From the IMG/VR virus record IMGVR_UViG_3300045988_055356: 40,329 nucleotides of DNA. One strand, given 5' to 3'. The position numbers were made by a program, and so were the translations under genes. Under the pieces are notes generated by a model. The model worked only from the letters and a program-made list of their open reading frames with translations, ran no database searches and had not been told where the DNA came from. How positions within the stretch are numbered: position 1 is the stretch's first letter; each line of letters starts with the position of its first letter. Of the stretch, positions 1 to 40,329 are shown piece after piece. The stretch comes from a virus.

Positions 1-84
1 TTTTTTTCCGCTTTCACGGGATTTTTTTCCGCTTTCACGGGATTTTTTTCCGCTTTCACGGGATTTTTTTCCGCTTCATCGGAT
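1..84. repeat. 21-bp tandem repeat (tttttttccgctttcacggga), three perfect units (1-63) plus one degenerate unit with a 1-nt deletion (64-83). Iteron-like.
   Basis: Read directly. Units at 1-21, 22-42 and 43-63 are identical. 64-83 reads tttttttccgcttcatcgga. The same unit recurs at 40278-40329. Confidence 0.95.
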
Positions 85-401
85 TTATAAACGGTTCCCC
101 AATCTCTTAACATTTGCGACGGGGTAAAATAAATATGATTATCAATCTTAATAATCTCTATCAATCCGATATTTTCCAAACGCTTATAAAGTCTGCGTAA
201 TGTATCGACCTTATCCGGTAAAATAGAACAATAAACAGCTACGTTTTTGTAGTCTGCCATGTAGTAAGGTTTCCCGGCATATTGTATTGGATTTTGCGCC
301 AACAAACCAAATAAGCATGACGCTAAAATACTTTCAGTTGGGTTCAAATCTAAAATATTTGAACGTACTAAATCTAAAATTAAATAGCTTCTTTCATTCA
401 T
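1..401 (-). CDS. N-terminal part (ATG at 401) of a putative replication-initiator-like protein with a winged-helix DNA-binding domain. The ORF runs off the window start and continues in frame at 40277 if the ends are joined.
   Basis: My own translation of the minus strand gives MNERSYLILDLVRSNILDLNPTESILASCLFGLLAQNPIQYAGKPYYMADYKNVAVYCSILPDKVDTLRRLYKRLENIGLIEIIKIDNHIYFTPSQMLRDWGTVYKSDEAEKNPVKAEKNPV... An in-frame stop lies upstream at 459-461. The frame matches ORF 39833..40315 across the 52-nt overlap. This piece is absent from the ORF track because it is truncated by the window edge. Confidence 0.7.
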   Translation of the reverse strand, partial: MNERSYLILDLVRSNILDLNPTESILASCLFGLLAQNPIQYAGKPYYMADYKNVAVYCSILPDKVDTLRRLYKRLENIGLIEIIKIDNHIYFTPSQMLRDWGTVYKSDEAEKNPVKAEKNPVKAEKNPVKAEK

Positions 402-408
402 ATTAAAT

Positions 409-430
409 AAAAAAAACCCGCAATCCGGGC
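409..430 (-). terminator. Short GC hairpin followed by a U8 tract, lying between a promoter-like site and the initiator ATG. Terminator or attenuator candidate.
   Basis: The minus strand reads GCCCGGATTGCGGG followed by TTTTTTTT. The stem is only 4 bp (CCCG/CGGG) with a 5-nt loop, so it is weak. Confidence 0.35.
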
Positions 431-509
431 TACCACACACCGGAAAACGGGTTTTGTGCTAATATTAGCAAATATCTTTCAAACGGTGGTAGTCGTTTGT
501 TTTACGCTG

Positions 510-2945: not shown

Positions 2946-3413
2946 TTATAAATTATAACTATATCCACAATTATTACATTTCATCGTTTCCCATATTGGG
3001 TCATATTCGTAGGGTGTAATATATCCGTCGCCACCACAACATATATATTCGCCGTCCACAACTTCCATGTCTCCGCCACATTCCGGGCAATCTCCGCATC
3101 CAATTAATACGCAATTCATAAATGCGTCAAACAGACTTGCAGTAATATTGAATATACCTATATGGTGCATTACTTCAATAACATTCAAGACGGGGACGTC
3201 TGTATTGATACAATCAAATATACTATACCCCCAATTTTCCCGGTCGTCGCAAATAATATCATGTTGCACCAATTCGCAAACAATCTGTTTGCTAATTTCA
3301 TTTGCTGTTTTTCCGGCAGCAATGGCCAAAATGGATAATTCGTTGTTTTGCTTTATTTTCATACATTTTCGCACTATCCCCGTGCGTGGGCTTTTACTTC
3401 TGCAAAAGTACAA
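2946..3413 (-). CDS. Hypothetical protein with a C-terminal Cys-rich zinc-ribbon region.
   Basis: CGDCPECGG...CCGG...CNNCG cysteine pairs. The alternative start ATG at 3362 (MKIKQNN...) is plausible, because the first 17 aa look non-native. Confidence 0.6.
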   Translation of the reverse strand: MYFCRSKSPRTGIVRKCMKIKQNNELSILAIAAGKTANEISKQIVCELVQHDIICDDRENWGYSIFDCINTDVPVLNVIEVMHHIGIFNITASLFDAFMNCVLIGCGDCPECGGDMEVVDGEYICCGGDGYITPYEYDPIWETMKCNNCGYSYNL

Positions 3414-3429
3414 TTATTTTTTTAATTAC

Positions 3430-3437
3430 CAAAGATA
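3430..3437 (-). promoter_or_regulatory. Isolated -7 box (TATCTTTG) upstream of the Zn-ribbon/HTH pair. No correctly spaced -33 TTTG was seen.
   Basis: The plus strand reads caaagata at 3430-3437. An 8-bp AT-only inverted repeat (attattat 3441-3448 / ataataat 3453-3460) lies next to it. Confidence 0.3.
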
Positions 3438-3472
3438 ATTATTATTATTTTCATAATAATATTAGAAAATAT

Positions 3473-3503
3473 TTTGCGATTTAACTATTTATCAATAACT
3501 TTG
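3473..3503 (+). promoter_or_regulatory. Plus-strand Bacteroidota-type promoter candidate: TTTG (3473-3476), 19-nt spacer, TAACTTTG (3496-3503).
   Basis: Direct motif match with canonical spacing. This is the only convincing plus-strand signal in the window, and it is divergent from the minus-strand -7 box at 3430-3437. Confidence 0.4.
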
Positions 3504-3507
3504 TTAA

Positions 3508-3576
3508 CCGCATTAACCAATATCGCTCTCGGTTACTACCGCCCCGGATCACATTTTGTGTGATCGGGGCTTTTTG
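3508..3576 (+). ncRNA. Candidate ~65-70 nt small RNA bounded by the plus-strand promoter and a strong intrinsic terminator.
   Basis: Promoter at 3473-3503, then a 12-bp hairpin plus T5 at 3541-3575. There is no ORF and no tRNA cloverleaf. The call rests purely on structure. Confidence 0.25.
3541..3575 (+). terminator. Rho-independent terminator oriented on the plus strand.
   Basis: gccccgGATCACA / TGTGATCggggc forms a 12-bp stem with one bulged G and the loop ttttg, followed by ttttt (3571-3575). In the minus orientation there is no U tract. Confidence 0.6.
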
Positions 3577-3611
3577 TTATAATACGACCATCTGTAAATC
3601 TCGCCATAATA

Positions 3612-3701
3612 TCAATTGAGTGCTATTTGTCCGCAACTCATACCATCAAATAAAGATAATACTTTCATATATTTAATAATTTTATTATAACTAAATTTCA
3701 T
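3612..3701 (-). pseudogene. 5' remnant of a DNA (cytosine-5) methyltransferase gene. Only the motif I region survives.
   Basis: My own translation gives MKFSYNKIIKYMKVLSLFDGMSCGQIALN*. The MKVLSLFDGMSCGQIAL stretch matches the N-terminus (AdoMet-binding motif I variant LFDGxSCG) of a common phage/bacterial C5-MTase subfamily. A stop follows after 18 homologous residues, and no continuation appears in the other two frames. Confidence 0.5.
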
Positions 3702-3711
3702 GTGCATATTA

Positions 3712-4104
3712 TCACATTACTAATATTCCTATTTGTCTTGCAATATCCAAAACTTCTATTTTGCTCTTAACGTCCTTTGGTATTATTGTTCCATTTAATG
3801 ATTTTGTAAATGTCAGATTGGTTTCAACCCAAAGGTATTTCTTTTTTCCGCTCTTGTCAGTCCGAACTACCCATTTTATTTTACCGTAGGATATACGCCA
3901 ATATGTCCCGCCTCCATATATCATATTTCCTGCACTTTTCTTAGACCATGAAACATAAGTTCTTTTGGCTCTAAAAAACCGTGTTCCGTCCGGATTAGTG
4001 AAACATATATCATTTTTTTCATTCTGTTTCCAATCCTCACAAAGTCTTTTGCGTTTTTTAATTAGTTCATTACGAACATTTGCGGCTAGATCTCTTAAAT
4101 TCAT
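3712..4104 (-). CDS. Hypothetical protein (accessory cassette, gene 2).
   Basis: 130-aa ORF with no recognisable motif. The local sequence is visibly AT-richer than the neighbouring modules. Confidence 0.55.
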   Translation of the reverse strand: MNLRDLAANVRNELIKKRKRLCEDWKQNEKNDICFTNPDGTRFFRAKRTYVSWSKKSAGNMIYGGGTYWRISYGKIKWVVRTDKSGKKKYLWVETNLTFTKSLNGTIIPKDVKSKIEVLDIARQIGILVM

Positions 4105-7181: not shown

Positions 7182-9962
7182 TTAATATACCGGGAAATTC
7201 ATTTCGCCTTCATATCTAAATAAATTATATCCTAATTCTTTAAATCTTTCAGTTATAGCGTCCGTTAATATATCATACCCATATTTATTGAAATGTACAT
7301 TATTAGCATTAATATAAAAGCAATTCGGCGTAATTCCATTTGATGCGTCCTTTTCATCTTGTTGTGCAACTACAAACGATGGGTCATTTTCAAATATTTT
7401 TTTAGCTTTTTCAAATCCGTATGTACACATATATTGTCTTGTGTTAAAAAACATTAAACCAAATTCATCATACAATGCGGTTTCTTGCTCTTGTAAATAG
7501 CTCAATTTGGGTTGCGTAATTTCTCTACCATTTGCAACTCTGTGTCTTCCTAATATCAAAACTTTCTTGCTTTCGGATTTCTCATAACATTTTTGATATA
7601 ATTCAACAAGTTCATTTATTGAGGATTCTCCGCCACCAAAATGACAAGCTAAGAACCAAACACTATCTCTTGTTTGCTGAAATCCGTATGTATATATCGG
7701 TTCATAAGTATTTGTCGTTATTTCTTCTCCTGCTTCTAATCTTTGGAAACCTAAAGTAACATCGCTATTCGCACCCTTACCAACTAAATTACCTTTAACC
7801 CCTGCTATATAACATGGATTTACAAGTAATTTATAATCTTGTGCCGTCGAACTTGCCCAAATAACTACATCTTTATCTTGTCCTTTCCATCTAACAGAAA
7901 ACTTGTAATTATCCGGAAATTCTACTTTATCAGTTGTTGCAGGTATAGTTATACTTTGTTTTAATCTCAAAGGCAAAACTCCCATTCTTCCCAATATGGA
8001 AAACATATTTTCTCCTCCTACTCCTCCCCAATAGTAATTCATATTTAGATTTGACGCAACCGTTTTAATCCAATCTGCCTCTGTAGACGAACTACCCCAA
8101 AAGGCAATTCCGCTTTGTACTTTTCTTTTTAATACACCTAAATCATCGGATAATTTATTTTTAATTCCTTGCATGAAACTCTCACTTGGGACTGAAATTT
8201 TGATTATACTATCCCAAACGCTATCTGATATGGCATCTGAAATAAGTATATTTTCATAATTAACCTCCCATTGTTCTATTTCACACATATACATTTTGGA
8301 AATTCCGAATGTTATGCCGTTTGTGTCTCCGCTTACTCTTATATATCCGGTTGTTGGCAGACTGTAACTTCGATTTGCAATTCTCCCACTTAAACAATAC
8401 AATAGAAATACCCCATCATTTATTTTTATTGCACCCCTTTTTATTACATTTTGATAATTAGCGTTTAATCCAAAATTCAATTGGGGTGTAACATTACCGC
8501 TGCTTGGGGCTATAAAACTTTCATCATTTATTCCATATAGAATTGCTGCAAACAAAACATAATTATATGTATTTTGCCAACTTTTACTGCTCAATAAATA
8601 ATATACACTACGTTGAGATTTATTAGATTTATCACCAACTGCAACGCCGACATTATTATCAGATAATTTGCTTACGTTCTGATATGCTATACTTTTTGGC
8701 GGTACGCCGTTTATTTCTTCACTTGAAAAGGTTCTGTTTAGGCTTGACACGTCAGCGTTTAGGCTTGACACGTCAGAGTTTAGGCTTGACACGTCAGAGT
8801 TTAGGCTTGACACGTCAGAGTTTAGGCTTGACACGTCAGAGTTTAGGCTTGACACGTCAGAGTTTAGGCTTGACACGTCAGAGTTTAGGCTTGACACGTC
8901 AGCGTTTAGGCCATATTCTACTTTATCAAAGGAAATTTCAGACGGCAAAATATTTTGTGTATCATCTTCCTTGCAAAAACTTATTTTATAAAAATAATTA
9001 TCTTTATCCAATGACACGTTTTTATCATTTATCGCTTGCCCCGAAACAAAACTTCCATTTTTTTCGTACTTTACAACCGCTTTTATATTAAATCCTTGCG
9101 AACATATTATATTTATTGGCGTTTCAATGAATTTTTTATTTCTTAATCTGTTTTTTAATTCATCTTGTAATTCTCCATTTGAGGCGTTTATACCACCTAC
9201 TTCTAAAATCAAACGTTTACCTATATCATTTGTATTTTGAATAATATCATTTGTATTTTGAATAATATCATTTGTATTTTGTGACACTTGCGATTCAACG
9301 CTACCTTTATATAGATATATTATATCTTCACTTTCATTTATTTCACTATCATTTATATTTCCAAGAGAAATTCTGTATATATAATCTTGGTCTGAAATTT
9401 CCATTTTTTTTGTTGGTACTCTAAACGAAATAGTACCTATATGTCTTTTATTTTCTATATCGTACTTACATATACCAATAATTTTATAATTTGTATTTAG
9501 TTCTATTGTAAATGGTGCTTTTACAAAACCATTTGTTCTTACTCTCAAATTGCTGTCTTCATTTACACCCGTAATTAAACTAACACCGCCGTTTTCCAAA
9601 AATAAGAAACTTGTATTATTTAATTTACCTTCTAAATCTGATATTTTTTTATTTGATACAATTCCGGTATCAAAACTTTCCCAATTTCCATCTTTGTTTG
9701 TAATAATTAAAACTTGGTTTTTAATTTCTATTCCACCAAAGTTTGAATAAATACCCGGCCGTGATGCCAAATAAAACACATTTTGGTCGGGCGTTCCCGG
9801 ATTTGTGTCCGGCGTTGCTATGCCTGCAAATGTCGCATTTGCACCAACGGTTGAAATAATAGCCAATAATGAATTTTGCAAAATCGCACCCGTAATCTCT
9901 TGGTTGCCGTTAGTCTTGATAACGTCTGCAACCGCTTGTTTTAGCCGTTTGTAATTTCCCAT
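7182..9962 (-). CDS. Tail fibre / receptor-binding protein with two paralogous internal domains, two tandem heptad arrays and a C-terminal SGNH/GDSL-like esterase-like domain.
   Basis: 926 aa, the last large gene of the tail module. Repeats (QNTNDII)x3 and (LNSDVSS)x8 are present. The C-terminal ~309 aa carry FWGSSST, GGVGGEN, HFGGGES and NNVHFNKYGY blocks resembling SGNH blocks I, II, III and V. Confidence 0.7.
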   Translation of the reverse strand: MGNYKRLKQAVADVIKTNGNQEITGAILQNSLLAIISTVGANATFAGIATPDTNPGTPDQNVFYLASRPGIYSNFGGIEIKNQVLIITNKDGNWESFDTGIVSNKKISDLEGKLNNTSFLFLENGGVSLITGVNEDSNLRVRTNGFVKAPFTIELNTNYKIIGICKYDIENKRHIGTISFRVPTKKMEISDQDYIYRISLGNINDSEINESEDIIYLYKGSVESQVSQNTNDIIQNTNDIIQNTNDIGKRLILEVGGINASNGELQDELKNRLRNKKFIETPINIICSQGFNIKAVVKYEKNGSFVSGQAINDKNVSLDKDNYFYKISFCKEDDTQNILPSEISFDKVEYGLNADVSSLNSDVSSLNSDVSSLNSDVSSLNSDVSSLNSDVSSLNSDVSSLNADVSSLNRTFSSEEINGVPPKSIAYQNVSKLSDNNVGVAVGDKSNKSQRSVYYLLSSKSWQNTYNYVLFAAILYGINDESFIAPSSGNVTPQLNFGLNANYQNVIKRGAIKINDGVFLLYCLSGRIANRSYSLPTTGYIRVSGDTNGITFGISKMYMCEIEQWEVNYENILISDAISDSVWDSIIKISVPSESFMQGIKNKLSDDLGVLKRKVQSGIAFWGSSSTEADWIKTVASNLNMNYYWGGVGGENMFSILGRMGVLPLRLKQSITIPATTDKVEFPDNYKFSVRWKGQDKDVVIWASSTAQDYKLLVNPCYIAGVKGNLVGKGANSDVTLGFQRLEAGEEITTNTYEPIYTYGFQQTRDSVWFLACHFGGGESSINELVELYQKCYEKSESKKVLILGRHRVANGREITQPKLSYLQEQETALYDEFGLMFFNTRQYMCTYGFEKAKKIFENDPSFVVAQQDEKDASNGITPNCFYINANNVHFNKYGYDILTDAITERFKELGYNLFRYEGEMNFPVY
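8736..8911. repeat. 21-bp tandem repeat, eight full units plus a partial one, in frame within the tail-fibre gene (heptad LNSDVSS / LNADVSS).
   Basis: Units gtttaggcttgacacgtcag[a/c] start at 8736, 8757, 8778, 8799, 8820, 8841, 8862 and 8883. Only the first and last units differ, by 1 nt. Confidence 0.95.
9223..9281. repeat. 21-bp tandem repeat, about 2.8 units, in frame within the tail-fibre gene (heptad QNTNDII).
   Basis: atatcatttgtattttgaata occurs at 9223-9243 and 9244-9264, with a partial unit at 9265-9281. Confidence 0.9.
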
Positions 9963-38642: not shown

Positions 38643-38913
38643 TTTCTCCCTCCAATCCTAATTTGTAAATCAGCATTCCAAATCTTAATACTTCTACAAT
38701 TCCTGCATATTTGATATAATCATTCTTTATAGAAACTATTTTGTCAGACAAAGATCTATAATCATCATATTTTTTTAAATCCATGCCAGAAACAAACATA
38801 TCCCATGCCTGCATATCCATGTCATTGTTTAATATAATTTGGCACGCTTCTTTATTGTTCCCGGCGTTTAATGCTTCCACTAATTTTACTTTTTGTTCCC
38901 ATTCCATATTCAA
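38632..38913 (-). CDS. Hypothetical protein.
   Basis: 93-aa ORF overlapping both neighbours by a few nt. Confidence 0.5.
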   Translation of the reverse strand: MNMEWEQKVKLVEALNAGNNKEACQIILNNDMDMQAWDMFVSGMDLKKYDDYRSLSDKIVSIKNDYIKYAGIVEVLRFGMLIYKLGLEGENEN

Positions 38914-39830
38914 AACTTTAAATATTGTTCAACTTGCATTTCCTCGGCAATCATCCGGTCAAACGCTCTGATTATTTCTTTGTGCCGTGCAACTTCATAC
39001 GCTGCGTAATCAATTTCCGGACTTGCAATGCCTTTTTTGCGCACGGCAAAAGCCGTATATTTATTTATCAGTCCATTTGATATGCGCTGCATATATATTG
39101 AATATGCCTTTTTACGGTGGGCGATTGAAACGTTTACATCATCAGCCAATCCGCATTTCATAAGCCAATCATAAACAAACATTTCGTCGCACAATTCAAA
39201 GACTACACGCCCGGTATATTTATAGCGTAAAAATAGTTTTCTCTTGCGCTCCTCGACACGCTTGTCATTGTTTCTGACTTGTTCCTCGCTAATATTTGGT
39301 TTGCCCGTCGGCAATGCCTTATATGCCTTTTCAAAAACTTCATTCTGTTTCTTTATATACGCCTTCAATATCTTTGATATATAGTCAATATTGAATTGTT
39401 GGTAATGTTTCTTGTCAACATTTCCGTGACTATCCCGTGGCAGATAGTCGTCTAATTCTCCTGCCGCCGTCAATTCAAACGCTAATTTTATGTCTGATAA
39501 TGTCAACGTTCCAAAATAGCGTTGCAATATATCAACAAGCCGTGTCTTGATATACGCCCATTCGTTTTCGTCGTTTGGAATATTATAGCCTACATCAATT
39601 GCAATGTATCTAAATATCTGTGACGAAGTTTCAAGCAATGTTTGTTTGTCTATTTCTTGTATTTGCGTTTTGGTTGATGCAACAAATACATACTTCTCAA
39701 CATTACTAAGACAATTGCATATTTCCGGCAACTGCATCATCTTACGCCGTATATCAATTGACTTTATTTCTGTTTGGCTTAATTCTAACGCCAAATCGGA
39801 CATGTTTATTTTATCGGGTAAATGTTTCAT
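38910..39830 (-). CDS. Hypothetical protein adjacent to the initiator-like gene (possible replication accessory factor, by position only).
   Basis: 306-aa ORF. No Walker motif was seen. Confidence 0.5.
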   Translation of the reverse strand: MKHLPDKINMSDLALELSQTEIKSIDIRRKMMQLPEICNCLSNVEKYVFVASTKTQIQEIDKQTLLETSSQIFRYIAIDVGYNIPNDENEWAYIKTRLVDILQRYFGTLTLSDIKLAFELTAAGELDDYLPRDSHGNVDKKHYQQFNIDYISKILKAYIKKQNEVFEKAYKALPTGKPNISEEQVRNNDKRVEERKRKLFLRYKYTGRVVFELCDEMFVYDWLMKCGLADDVNVSIAHRKKAYSIYMQRISNGLINKYTAFAVRKKGIASPEIDYAAYEVARHKEIIRAFDRMIAEEMQVEQYLKF

Positions 39831-39832
39831 AA

Positions 39833-40329
39833 TTAGAAATCGTCATTTAAAAATTTAACCGCATCATATACGTTTATCTTAGATGTGCTTTGTTGATATT
39901 GTAGCTTAACATGTAATTTGTTGCGCTCCACGTCTCCACGGATAAAATTCCGCACGGTCGCCAACCACCCATTTTTTGTGCGTTTCATATTTTTTTGGTC
40001 GCTCCAATCAGCAACGGCATGAAAATAATAGACTAAATCAACTCTTTCAAATTCCGGTGTTGCAAATCTCTTTTCAAACTCTGAATAATCAACACCCGCC
40101 CCGGCTTCATCAAATTTTACTAATTTGTAAATTTCAGAATTGCGGAATAATGTTTTTTTATCTTTGCTTTCCTCCGGTTCTTTAATGGGAATGTTTGCCG
40201 CAAATTCTAATTGCGGCTTAATATTATTATTTATATTATTATTTATATTATTATTTATATTATTTATATAGAGCGGATTTTTTTCCGCTTTCACGGGATT
40301 TTTTTCCGCTTTCACGGGATTTTTTTCCG
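39833..40329 (-). CDS. C-terminal part of the initiator-like protein, the same gene as 1..401. It includes the NNIN and KAEKNPV repeat linkers.
   Basis: The ORF-track M at 40315 is really an internal GTG codon of the repeat. The reading frame stays open to the window end and is continuous with 1..401 after circular closure, giving about 281 aa in total. Confidence 0.7.
   Translation of the reverse strand, partial: EKNPVKAEKNPVKAEKNPLYINNINNNINNNINNNIKPQLEFAANIPIKEPEESKDKKTLFRNSEIYKLVKFDEAGAGVDYSEFEKRFATPEFERVDLVYYFHAVADWSDQKNMKRTKNGWLATVRNFIRGDVERNKLHVKLQYQQSTSKINVYDAVKFLNDDF
40221..40268. repeat. 12-bp pure-AT tandem repeat (atattattattt, about 4 copies), in frame (NNIN)n, directly abutting the 21-bp repeats.
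   Basis: Read directly. About 50 nt with no G or C. Confidence 0.9.
40278..40329. repeat. Terminal redundancy: 52 nt identical to positions 1-52 (two full 21-bp units plus 10 nt).
   Basis: Direct comparison of the two window ends. Offsetting the alignment by one repeat unit fails, because 40257-40277 differs from 1-21. Confidence 0.9.

Follow-up and report, generated by a model that had tools for sequence, protein, structure and literature searches.

A probable replication origin within the initiator-like gene of a phiPDS1-like Bacteroidales siphovirus

Introduction

Replication origins that lie within the gene for an initiator protein are known from phage lambda and from staphylococcal RepA_N plasmids, and we describe here a block of direct repeats (iterons) and an adjoining A+T-only tract that probably constitute such an origin inside an initiator-like gene of IMG/VR virus record IMGVR_UViG_3300045988_055356 (40,329 bp; "the window" below is the whole of this DNA). 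In plasmid pSK41 the N-terminal domain of Rep binds four Rep boxes that lie centrally within rep, the linker encoded by the origin is dispensable as protein, and the C-terminal domain is host-specific and binds DnaG; in plasmid pPR9 a cassette made up of the N-terminal domain, with a pfam13730 helix-turn-helix (HTH), and the origin has been swapped while the C-terminal domain was kept (PMC5703833). The lambdoid and Stx phages have four to six iterons; relatives differ in this number, and the protein gains residues with it (PMC7466680). The RepA_N-type initiator whose structure is 4RO3 comes from a satellite, the Vibrio PLE (PMC7145576).

Along the coding strand of the gene described here the order is N-terminal domain (N-domain), at least four iterons, a 53-bp A+T-only tract and C-terminal domain (C-domain), which is the lambda-type layout. 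The layout itself is thus not new, but it is apparently undescribed in the phiPDS1-like phages: the description of phiPDS1 makes no mention of an origin (PMC10773633), and no earlier description of an origin in this group was found in the literature searched. What appears to be new in this instance is its occurrence in a Bacteroidales siphovirus group, a RepA_N-like initiator outside the Firmicutes, an in-frame array resembling a variable-number tandem repeat (VNTR), and the 53-bp A+T tract that is translated as poly-(NNIN).

Results

Iterons and an A+T-only tract in frame in one gene

The window has a G+C content of 39.5%, and its positions 1-52 are identical to positions 40278-40329. Closure on this 52-nt overlap gives a single minus-strand open reading frame (ORF) of 281 amino acids (aa) that runs from an ATG at 401 to a stop codon at 39833-39835, with at least four 21-bp repeats followed by a tract of A and T only. 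Terminal overlaps of 31 and 10 nt fit equally well because both ends lie within the 21-bp tandem array, and 4, 5 or 6 units are compatible with the overlaps; the iteron copy number is probably a lower bound, with possible collapse in short-read assembly. The first-pass annotation of this DNA had described the repeats and the AT block as lying in frame in an initiator-like ORF, and the repeat arrays, the 52-nt overlap and the 281-aa ORF were all recovered as it described them.

Tandem repeats were located with Tandem Repeats Finder (TRF), which reports a 21-bp unit with 100% matches at 1-76 (3.6 copies) and at 40275-40329 (2.6 copies). The promoter-proximal part of the array occupies 1-86 (minus strand), where the coding strand reads AAATCCGATGAA followed by GCGGAAAAAAATCCCGTGAAA units, and its first 52 nt duplicate 40278-40329; the distal part (40273-40329, minus strand) includes the terminal unit, which is fully dyad-symmetric and adjoins the AT tract. 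This terminal unit is the perfect dyad GCGGA-A6-TCCGC at 40273-40288, with CGGANNNNNNTCCG at 40274-40287, and the dyad sequence next to the AT tract is GCGGAAAAAAATCCGC. Exact copies of the 13-nt core CGGAAAAAAATCC are found at 19-31, 40-52 and 61-73 and, within the window, in the array only. The units read CGGA-AAAAAA-TCC(C)G and repeat in a register of 21 bp, or two helical turns; their half-sites, CGGA and TCC(C)G, are inverted, converge on the poly-A tract and alternate every 10-11 bp. They encode aa 107-135 of the 281-aa protein, which reads MNERS...DEAEKNPV(KAEKNPV)x2 KAEKNPLYINNINNNINNNINNNIKPQ... and ...WGTVYKSDEAEKNPV(KAEKNPV)2KAEKNPLYINNINNNINNNINNNIKPQ... in its middle. Dyads of the form CGGA-N6-TCCG number 5 in the window against 0.3 expected.

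Two identical 14-mers (CGGATAAAATTCCG) at 2244-2257 and 39939-39952 also match this dyad pattern. The first lies in the exonuclease gene. The second encodes the conserved peptide RNFIR, whose codons vary freely in relatives; it was rejected as a functional site, is probably a chance occurrence, and served as a negative control (below).

The A+T-only tract, a candidate DNA-unwinding element, occupies 40218-40270 (no strand assigned). It is (ATATTATTATTT)x3.7, translated YINNINNNINNNINNNI, and TRF places the 12-bp unit at 40221-40264 (3.7 copies, 100% matches). Its 53 bp compare with 24 bp for the runner-up A+T-only run in the genome and with a maximum of 29 bp in 200 shuffles, and it is the genome's least stable 40- and 60-bp window (z = 4.2-4.5). 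A Joint Genome Institute (JGI) contig of 40,279 bp, P0001, whose initiator is 99% identical, has three NNIN-type units against four in the window; having one unit fewer, it indicates that the 12-bp repeat is length-polymorphic between near-identical genomes, or was differently assembled.

Conservation of the block as DNA

Is it the peptide of this block that has been conserved, or its DNA? Codons were compared among six divergent lineages with N-domain identities of 58-79%, by pairwise counts of same-codon use. Identical N-domain residues share their codon in only 43% of comparisons (423/988; about 57% changed), so that synonymous sites in the N-domain are near saturation. Every canonical unit in the same six lineages reads GCG GAA AAA AAT CC[C/G], that is, the core GCGGAAAAAAATCC(C/G) is invariant where about 57% of N-domain synonymous sites have changed. 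Five lineages and four codons at 0.43 give a probability of about 5e-8, a rough value as neither the lineages nor the repeat units are independent. The conserved C-domain peptide ATVRNFIR, taken as a control, has freely varying codons in the same lineages.

The substitutions that do occur in the units point the same way. Alanine is never encoded by GCA, GCC or GCT in about 220 units (Ala codon usage is 45% GCA and 25% GCG), and where the first codon is replaced it is mostly by ACG (Thr) or TCG (Ser), both of which leave the CGGA half-site intact; GTG, CAG and CGG are each found in a single unit. Radical changes of the peptide, E to G and P to S, are tolerated, and the 6-nt spacer varies between lineages (GTTGAA, GTGAAA, GTTAAT, AACAGT, ATAAAA). 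The most telling result is that in the sister clades the motifs are independent of reading frame: they are spaced 22 and 23 bp apart in two frames in FCL-2, 24, 24 and 22 bp apart in two frames in PD491P1, and 25, 22, 25 and 22 bp apart in all three frames in BKO1-3. Frame-shifted units are also present in two further related loci, L052 and L058.

In the AT tract, third positions carry 15 G or C against 67.5 expected (198 codons, 11 lineages). The peptide of the tract differs between lineages (YINNINN, IISNIYNIIDNNID, LNIIDNNIDNIRD and others) and the AT-richness is retained. Since the peptide varies and third positions are A/T-biased, the object of selection in the tract is the DNA. Judged by these comparisons, the iteron core and the AT-richness of the tract are both under purifying selection at the DNA level.

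Retention, exchange and covariation in relatives

The 120 best homologues listed, which are 49-99% identical, all have one to ten xAEKNPx units (mode 4) followed by an N/I/Y-rich tract of the (P/L)YINNINN type. The terminal unit ends ...AATCCG in nearly every lineage examined (two, L049 and L052, end in CCC), and it is the sole unit kept in a single-copy relative. A comparison of relatives had been proposed in the first-pass annotation, with relatives that keep the gene and lack the repeats named as evidence against its idea. Such relatives were not seen among the 120; the repeat sequence covaries with the N-domain (below) and copy number ranges from 1 to 10, the two points that the annotation had proposed to look at.

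Among the same homologues 62 have a C-domain of the window's type and 53 one like that of PD691P4, and L045 and P0107 have a further variant. N-domain, iterons and AT tract therefore behave as one exchangeable module behind which the C-domain is swapped. Conversely, where the window-type C-domain stands behind other N-domain types, different repeats are found at the same place: ACGGAAAATCCG-like units at about 15-bp spacing in phiPDS1 and AS73P1, TTGGAAAATCCAA-like dyads in BKO1-3 (five) and PD491P1 (four), and two copies of CTAAACGAAAGTTTAG in TCUEAP2, each of these types preceding an AT-rich or N/I/D-rich stretch. Distant homologues of the window's own N-domain retain its dyad type, namely PD691P4 (35-45% identity; CGGATTTAAATCCG twice plus a half-site) and Flavobacterium phage FCL-2 (32% identity; CGGA-W6-TCCG three times). 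Repeat sequence thus covaries with the N-domain across five types. A tblastn search of a plasmid collection of 72,556 records found no homologue, so that collection gives no independent evidence for the cassette as a minimal replicon.

The initiator-like protein

The N-domain is encoded by codons 1-106 (84-401, minus strand, ATG at 399-401), and most homologues begin at MNERSY. The remainder of the linker, the C-domain and the stop codon occupy 39833-40217 (minus strand), with the C-domain (aa 172-281) at 39836-40165. AlphaFold2 (AF2) gives aa 4-105 a winged-helix topology with a predicted local distance difference test score (pLDDT) of about 90, which agrees with the N-terminal winged helix recognised in the first-pass annotation; by fold it appears RepA_N/DnaD-like. 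The following 65 residues (aa 107-171) are predicted to be disordered (pLDDT <30) and coincide with the part encoded by the repeats and the AT tract, so the earlier placement of both in a linker also holds. The C-domain, modelled alone, is helical, of about 110 aa (pLDDT 82.5), and is indeed conserved, being common to phiPDS1, BKO1-3, AS73P1, PD491P1 and TCUEAP2.

In a Foldseek search of the PDB with the N-domain, ranks 1-4, 13 and 18 were RepA_N N-terminal domains (4pql, 4pt7, 5kbj and 4ro3); 4pql and 4pt7 are the N-terminal domain of the staphylococcal plasmid (pSK41/pTZ2162) RepA and 5kbj is its DNA complex. Among PHROG families the N-terminal half matches phrog_428 (replication initiation protein, 8e-8) and phrog_186 (DnaD-like helicase loader, 9e-6), and the C-terminal half matches phrog_6969. 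A PDB sequence search with a 26-sequence profile gave chance-level matches only. In BFVD the C-domain finds only relatives, one of which is named "chromosome replication initiation protein". The phiPDS1-type N-domain matches HTH_36 (PF13730), the family of pPR9, weakly and below the gathering score.

Neighbouring genes and genome context

The gene directly downstream of the initiator gene (38910-39830, minus strand) encodes a 306-aa protein of phrog_34953 and occupies a position like that of lambda P. No Pfam or NCBIfam family and no detectable similarity to lambda P were found for it. It is 52% identical to phiPDS1 gp17, which accompanies the same initiator C-domain, and 30% identical to the corresponding neighbour in PD691P4, which accompanies a different one; a homologue follows the initiator gene at every locus inspected. 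By analogy of position with lambda P, the 306-aa protein is a candidate initiator partner.

Upstream of the initiator gene, a terminator-like hairpin (AGCCCGGATTGCGGGTT then T8; 415-431, minus strand) ends about 10 nt before the ATG. It is apparently conserved in relatives, since over-called ORF extensions there translate it (...ARITGF..., ...SPDCGFF...), and it may be an attenuator that gates expression of the initiator and hence transcription through the origin. A gene for a PD-(D/E)XK exonuclease (1248-2576) lies in the same neighbourhood, with one for a Gp3-like protein (523-1245) between it and the hairpin, and the order continues with the hairpin, the initiator-like gene, the 306-aa gene and genes for a RuvC-like resolvase, an SbcC/RecN-like ATPase, a DnaQ-like exonuclease and a single-stranded DNA-binding protein (SSB). 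As stated in the first-pass annotation, there is no polymerase, primase or helicase gene detectable, here among the window ORFs of at least 200 aa; the replication-linked functions that the phage does encode are accessory only (SSB, DnaQ-like exonuclease, recombination proteins). In two related loci, L052 (2441-2803) and L059 (2618-3004), a small HNH_3 endonuclease gene lies between the Gp3-like and initiator genes and overlaps the start of the latter. A homing-type HNH_3 nuclease at the boundary of the N-domain/origin cassette might promote swapping of the cassette.

The genome is that of a siphovirus of the phiPDS1/BKO1-3/AS73P1 group of Bacteroidales phages, with about 75% nucleotide identity to this group across the structural genes, and terminase, portal, tape-measure and related proteins are encoded in the window. 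All long ORFs of the window are on the minus strand and GC skew is negative in every 2-kb window, from which it follows that the genome is transcribed in a single direction throughout. Of 45 related IMG/VR contigs, 19 terminate inside the iteron array, many of them at a length of about 44 kb (L005, L006, L009, L019, L024, L026, L027, L029-L031, L034, L036, L038, L041-L044, L046, L047). The ends of the window are therefore an assembly break and not physical termini; short-read assemblies break here systematically, so calls of direct terminal repeats or circularity ("DTR/circular") and iteron copy numbers in this group are unreliable and need caution.

An AT-rich intergenic region of about 300 bp at 3414-3711 contains a strong hairpin (GCCCCGATCACA...TGTGATCCGGGGC, 3541-3571) and promoter-like hexamers, and no repeat array was found in it. 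On these features it was rejected as an alternative origin and is probably a terminator/promoter junction between gene blocks, i.e. a regulatory spacer.

Perfect in-frame 21-bp arrays are also present in the gene of a 926-aa tail protein (minus-strand ORF 7182-9962), at 8736-8911 and 9223-9281, where they encode (SDVSSLN)x8.4 and (QNTNDII)x2.8. Heptad-length DNA repeats thus arise in this genome outside a replication context, and a 21-bp period with perfect copies is by itself not diagnostic of an origin.

Discussion

A probable origin inside the initiator gene

These comparisons establish that the iterons and the AT tract lie within the linker-coding part of the initiator-like gene, that they are selected as DNA and that they are inherited together with the N-domain, but do they form an origin? 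We put the probability at about 0.75 that the block is the phage's replication origin, placed inside the gene of the initiator that would recognise it. It has the elements of an iteron-type theta origin in general, namely at least three phased direct repeats beside the least stable stretch, the repeats covarying with the N-domain. The initiator would consist of the winged-helix N-domain (aa ~4-105), a disordered linker of about 65 aa and a helical C-domain of about 110 aa, and the DNA that codes for the linker would be the cis-acting element. Dimers of the N-domain would occupy the phased iterons along a single helix face, bending the A-tracts, and would oligomerise; this would melt the adjacent AT tract; and the C-domain, possibly with the 306-aa downstream protein, would recruit helicase/primase and polymerase from the host. 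As in lambda, transcripts of the initiator gene would run through the origin.

Several points weigh against this reading. Binding, melting, recruitment and the initiation site are all things that we infer, and recruitment of the host machinery is purely inferential, since a fold search of the PDB with the C-domain gave no match. The 281-aa protein matches no Pfam-A family by hmmscan at E<=1 (no RepA_N, Phage_rep_O or DnaD) and no NCBIfam family. The Foldseek matches of the N-domain are weak (E ~0.01-0.07, probability 1.00, TM ~0.5 target-normalised), with generic winged helices of the MarR/ArsR kind scoring only slightly below the RepA_N domains. DnaA boxes are a common, not a universal, accompaniment of iterons; matches to TTATCCACA with at most one mismatch number 8 in the window against 13.7 expected, and none is near the block. 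Cumulative GC skew is monotonic and carries no origin information, since every gene is on the minus strand. Over 100 bp the least stable window is elsewhere, in the AT-rich intergenic region 3414-3711 (3407-3750). Finally, partial dependence among the lineages and the concerted evolution of tandem arrays make the P values of the codon comparison rough.

Other explanations of the repeats

Could the repeats be binding sites of the N-domain that serve autoregulation, copy control, handcuffing or a partition-like role, with initiation elsewhere, for example at 3414-3711? The constraint on the DNA tells us that it is functional and not specifically that it is an origin, the winged-helix centromere binder TubR is among the fold matches (Foldseek rank 9), and the terminator-like hairpin just upstream suggests that expression of the gene is regulated; the position of the least stable 100-bp window (3407-3750) would suit initiation outside the gene. 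We nevertheless consider this explanation unlikely. The array adjoins the genome's most extreme A+T-only tract, with selection for A and T at synonymous sites, which fits an unwinding element and not an operator; among the window ORFs scanned, none resembled ParA or TubZ; region 3414-3711 has no repeat array and resembles a terminator plus promoter spacer; and the intragenic arrays of the two precedents, pSK41 Rep and lambda O, are origins (PMC5703833, PMC7466680).

That (KAEKNPV)n and (NNIN)n are a slippage-generated peptide linker that sets length, the DNA having no cis-acting role, is very improbable. The predicted disorder of the linker, the polymorphic copy number and the perfect in-frame 21-bp arrays of the tail protein gene are all as this explanation would have them, and GAA, AAA and AAT are preferred codons anyway. 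It is contradicted by the comparative codon and frame data: synonymous positions of the core are invariant beside near-saturated coding sequence, radical amino-acid changes (E to G, P to S, A to T/S) are tolerated and the first codon is NCG in nearly all units, motifs of the sister clades stand in two or three frames at spacings not divisible by three, and the AT tract conserves base composition and not peptide.

About as improbable is a role of the array in packaging (pac) or recombination, or as a set of antisense terminators or RNA hairpins. Many related contigs do begin or end in the array, each unit fits a weak terminator pattern on the plus (antisense) strand (TTCCGCTTTCACGGGA then T7), and as a single strand its folding is somewhat more favourable than that of shuffled sequences (z = -2.2 to -2.8). 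But assemblies are expected to break artefactually at perfect tandem repeats that exceed the assembler k-mer, and the overlap is wholly inside the repeat; 13 kb separate the array from the terminase gene, and it is inherited with a DNA-binding initiator domain and not with packaging genes. The hairpins, which were rejected, have weak stems of only 5 pairs including a G-T pair, which are absent from the sister-clade motifs, where the dyads have no T-run following.

Implications

If the block is an origin inside the initiator gene, it supplies a concrete, testable origin and initiator for the phiPDS1-like siphoviruses, which are common human-gut Bacteroidales phages, and a rep+ori cassette that is a candidate for the construction of Bacteroidales vectors. 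RepA_N-like replication from an origin within the gene is then extended to phages of Bacteroidota. The block is also a clean natural case of dual coding, in which the same bases specify a linker peptide and predicted initiator-binding sites, with frame-independent conservation of the motif and suppressed synonymous change. The array explains, moreover, why assemblies of phiPDS1-like phages break at the initiator locus.

RepA_N initiators are considered to be nearly confined to the Firmicutes. A wider and distinctly tentative proposal, which we regard as possible but doubtful as a whole, is that in phiPDS1-like Bacteroidales siphoviruses the N-domain, iterons and AT tract form a horizontally exchangeable "specificity cassette", with at least five initiator/iteron types and at least two to three C-domain partners. 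In this clade the in-frame 21- and 12-bp periods would make it a slippage-prone VNTR whose copy number (1-10 or more) might tune initiation strength or incompatibility on co-infection. The origin, dual-coding and fast to evolve, would in that case be a determinant of how phages of the gut virome compete in replication, and RepA_N-like initiators would be widespread in phages of Bacteroidota.

Comparison with known systems

The first-pass annotation likened the arrangement to lambda O, and its layout of iterons and AT tract stands; the modelled fold looks closer to RepA_N (pSK41), and there is no Phage_rep_O match. Lambda O with its origin (PMC7466680) and the phage described here both have the origin, a putative one in our phage, in the middle of the initiator gene, with iterons and then an AT-rich tract along the direction of transcription; both have a conserved gene immediately downstream, in the P position, and neither has its own helicase, primase or polymerase (ORFs of at least 200 aa in our phage). 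An iteron number that varies between relatives and dyad symmetry of the iterons are shared with lambda and the Stx phages. Our phage differs from lambda in lacking a match to Pfam Phage_rep_O (PF04492), in the sequence and 21-bp tandem register of its repeats, in a downstream 306-aa protein similar neither to P nor to any named family, and in an N-domain whose fold matches RepA_N/DnaD-like domains and nothing annotated as O.

With RepA of the Vibrio cholerae PLE (4RO3; PMC7145576) it shares a RepA_N-like initiator on a mobile element of a Gram-negative host, recognisable by structure and not by sequence, without a helicase or primase domain, and iterons with inverted sub-repeats around an A-tract; 4ro3 is the third-ranked structural match of its N-domain. 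The PLE differs in that its origin is in a non-coding region outside repA and that it depends on the replisome of its helper phage (PMC7145576).

From the RepA_N plasmids our phage differs in having no Pfam RepA_N (PF06970) sequence match, in being a ~40-kb siphovirus of a Bacteroidota host and not a Firmicutes plasmid, in a C-domain unrelated by fold search to any solved structure, in the long pure A+T tract that is also within the reading frame, and in a perfect in-frame 21-bp tandem array of polymorphic copy number. Because the Pfam profiles fail and the fold is only suggestive, we file the locus as working like a RepA_N/lambda-O intragenic origin and not as a demonstrated family member. 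With the plasmids pSK41/pTZ2162 (PMC5703833, PMC7145576) it shares a winged-helix N-terminal domain of the repeat-binding type, a linker encoded by the putative origin and a C-terminal domain, iterons central in the initiator's own gene, and exchange of N-terminal domain and origin as a cassette. Its iterons have the RepA_N form, semi-palindromic with inverted half-sites converging on a poly-A tract, and RepA_N N-terminal domains are the best structural matches of its N-domain. The modelled fold and the iteron form suggest that the nearest precedent is the RepA_N plasmid initiator, as in pSK41, rather than lambda O.

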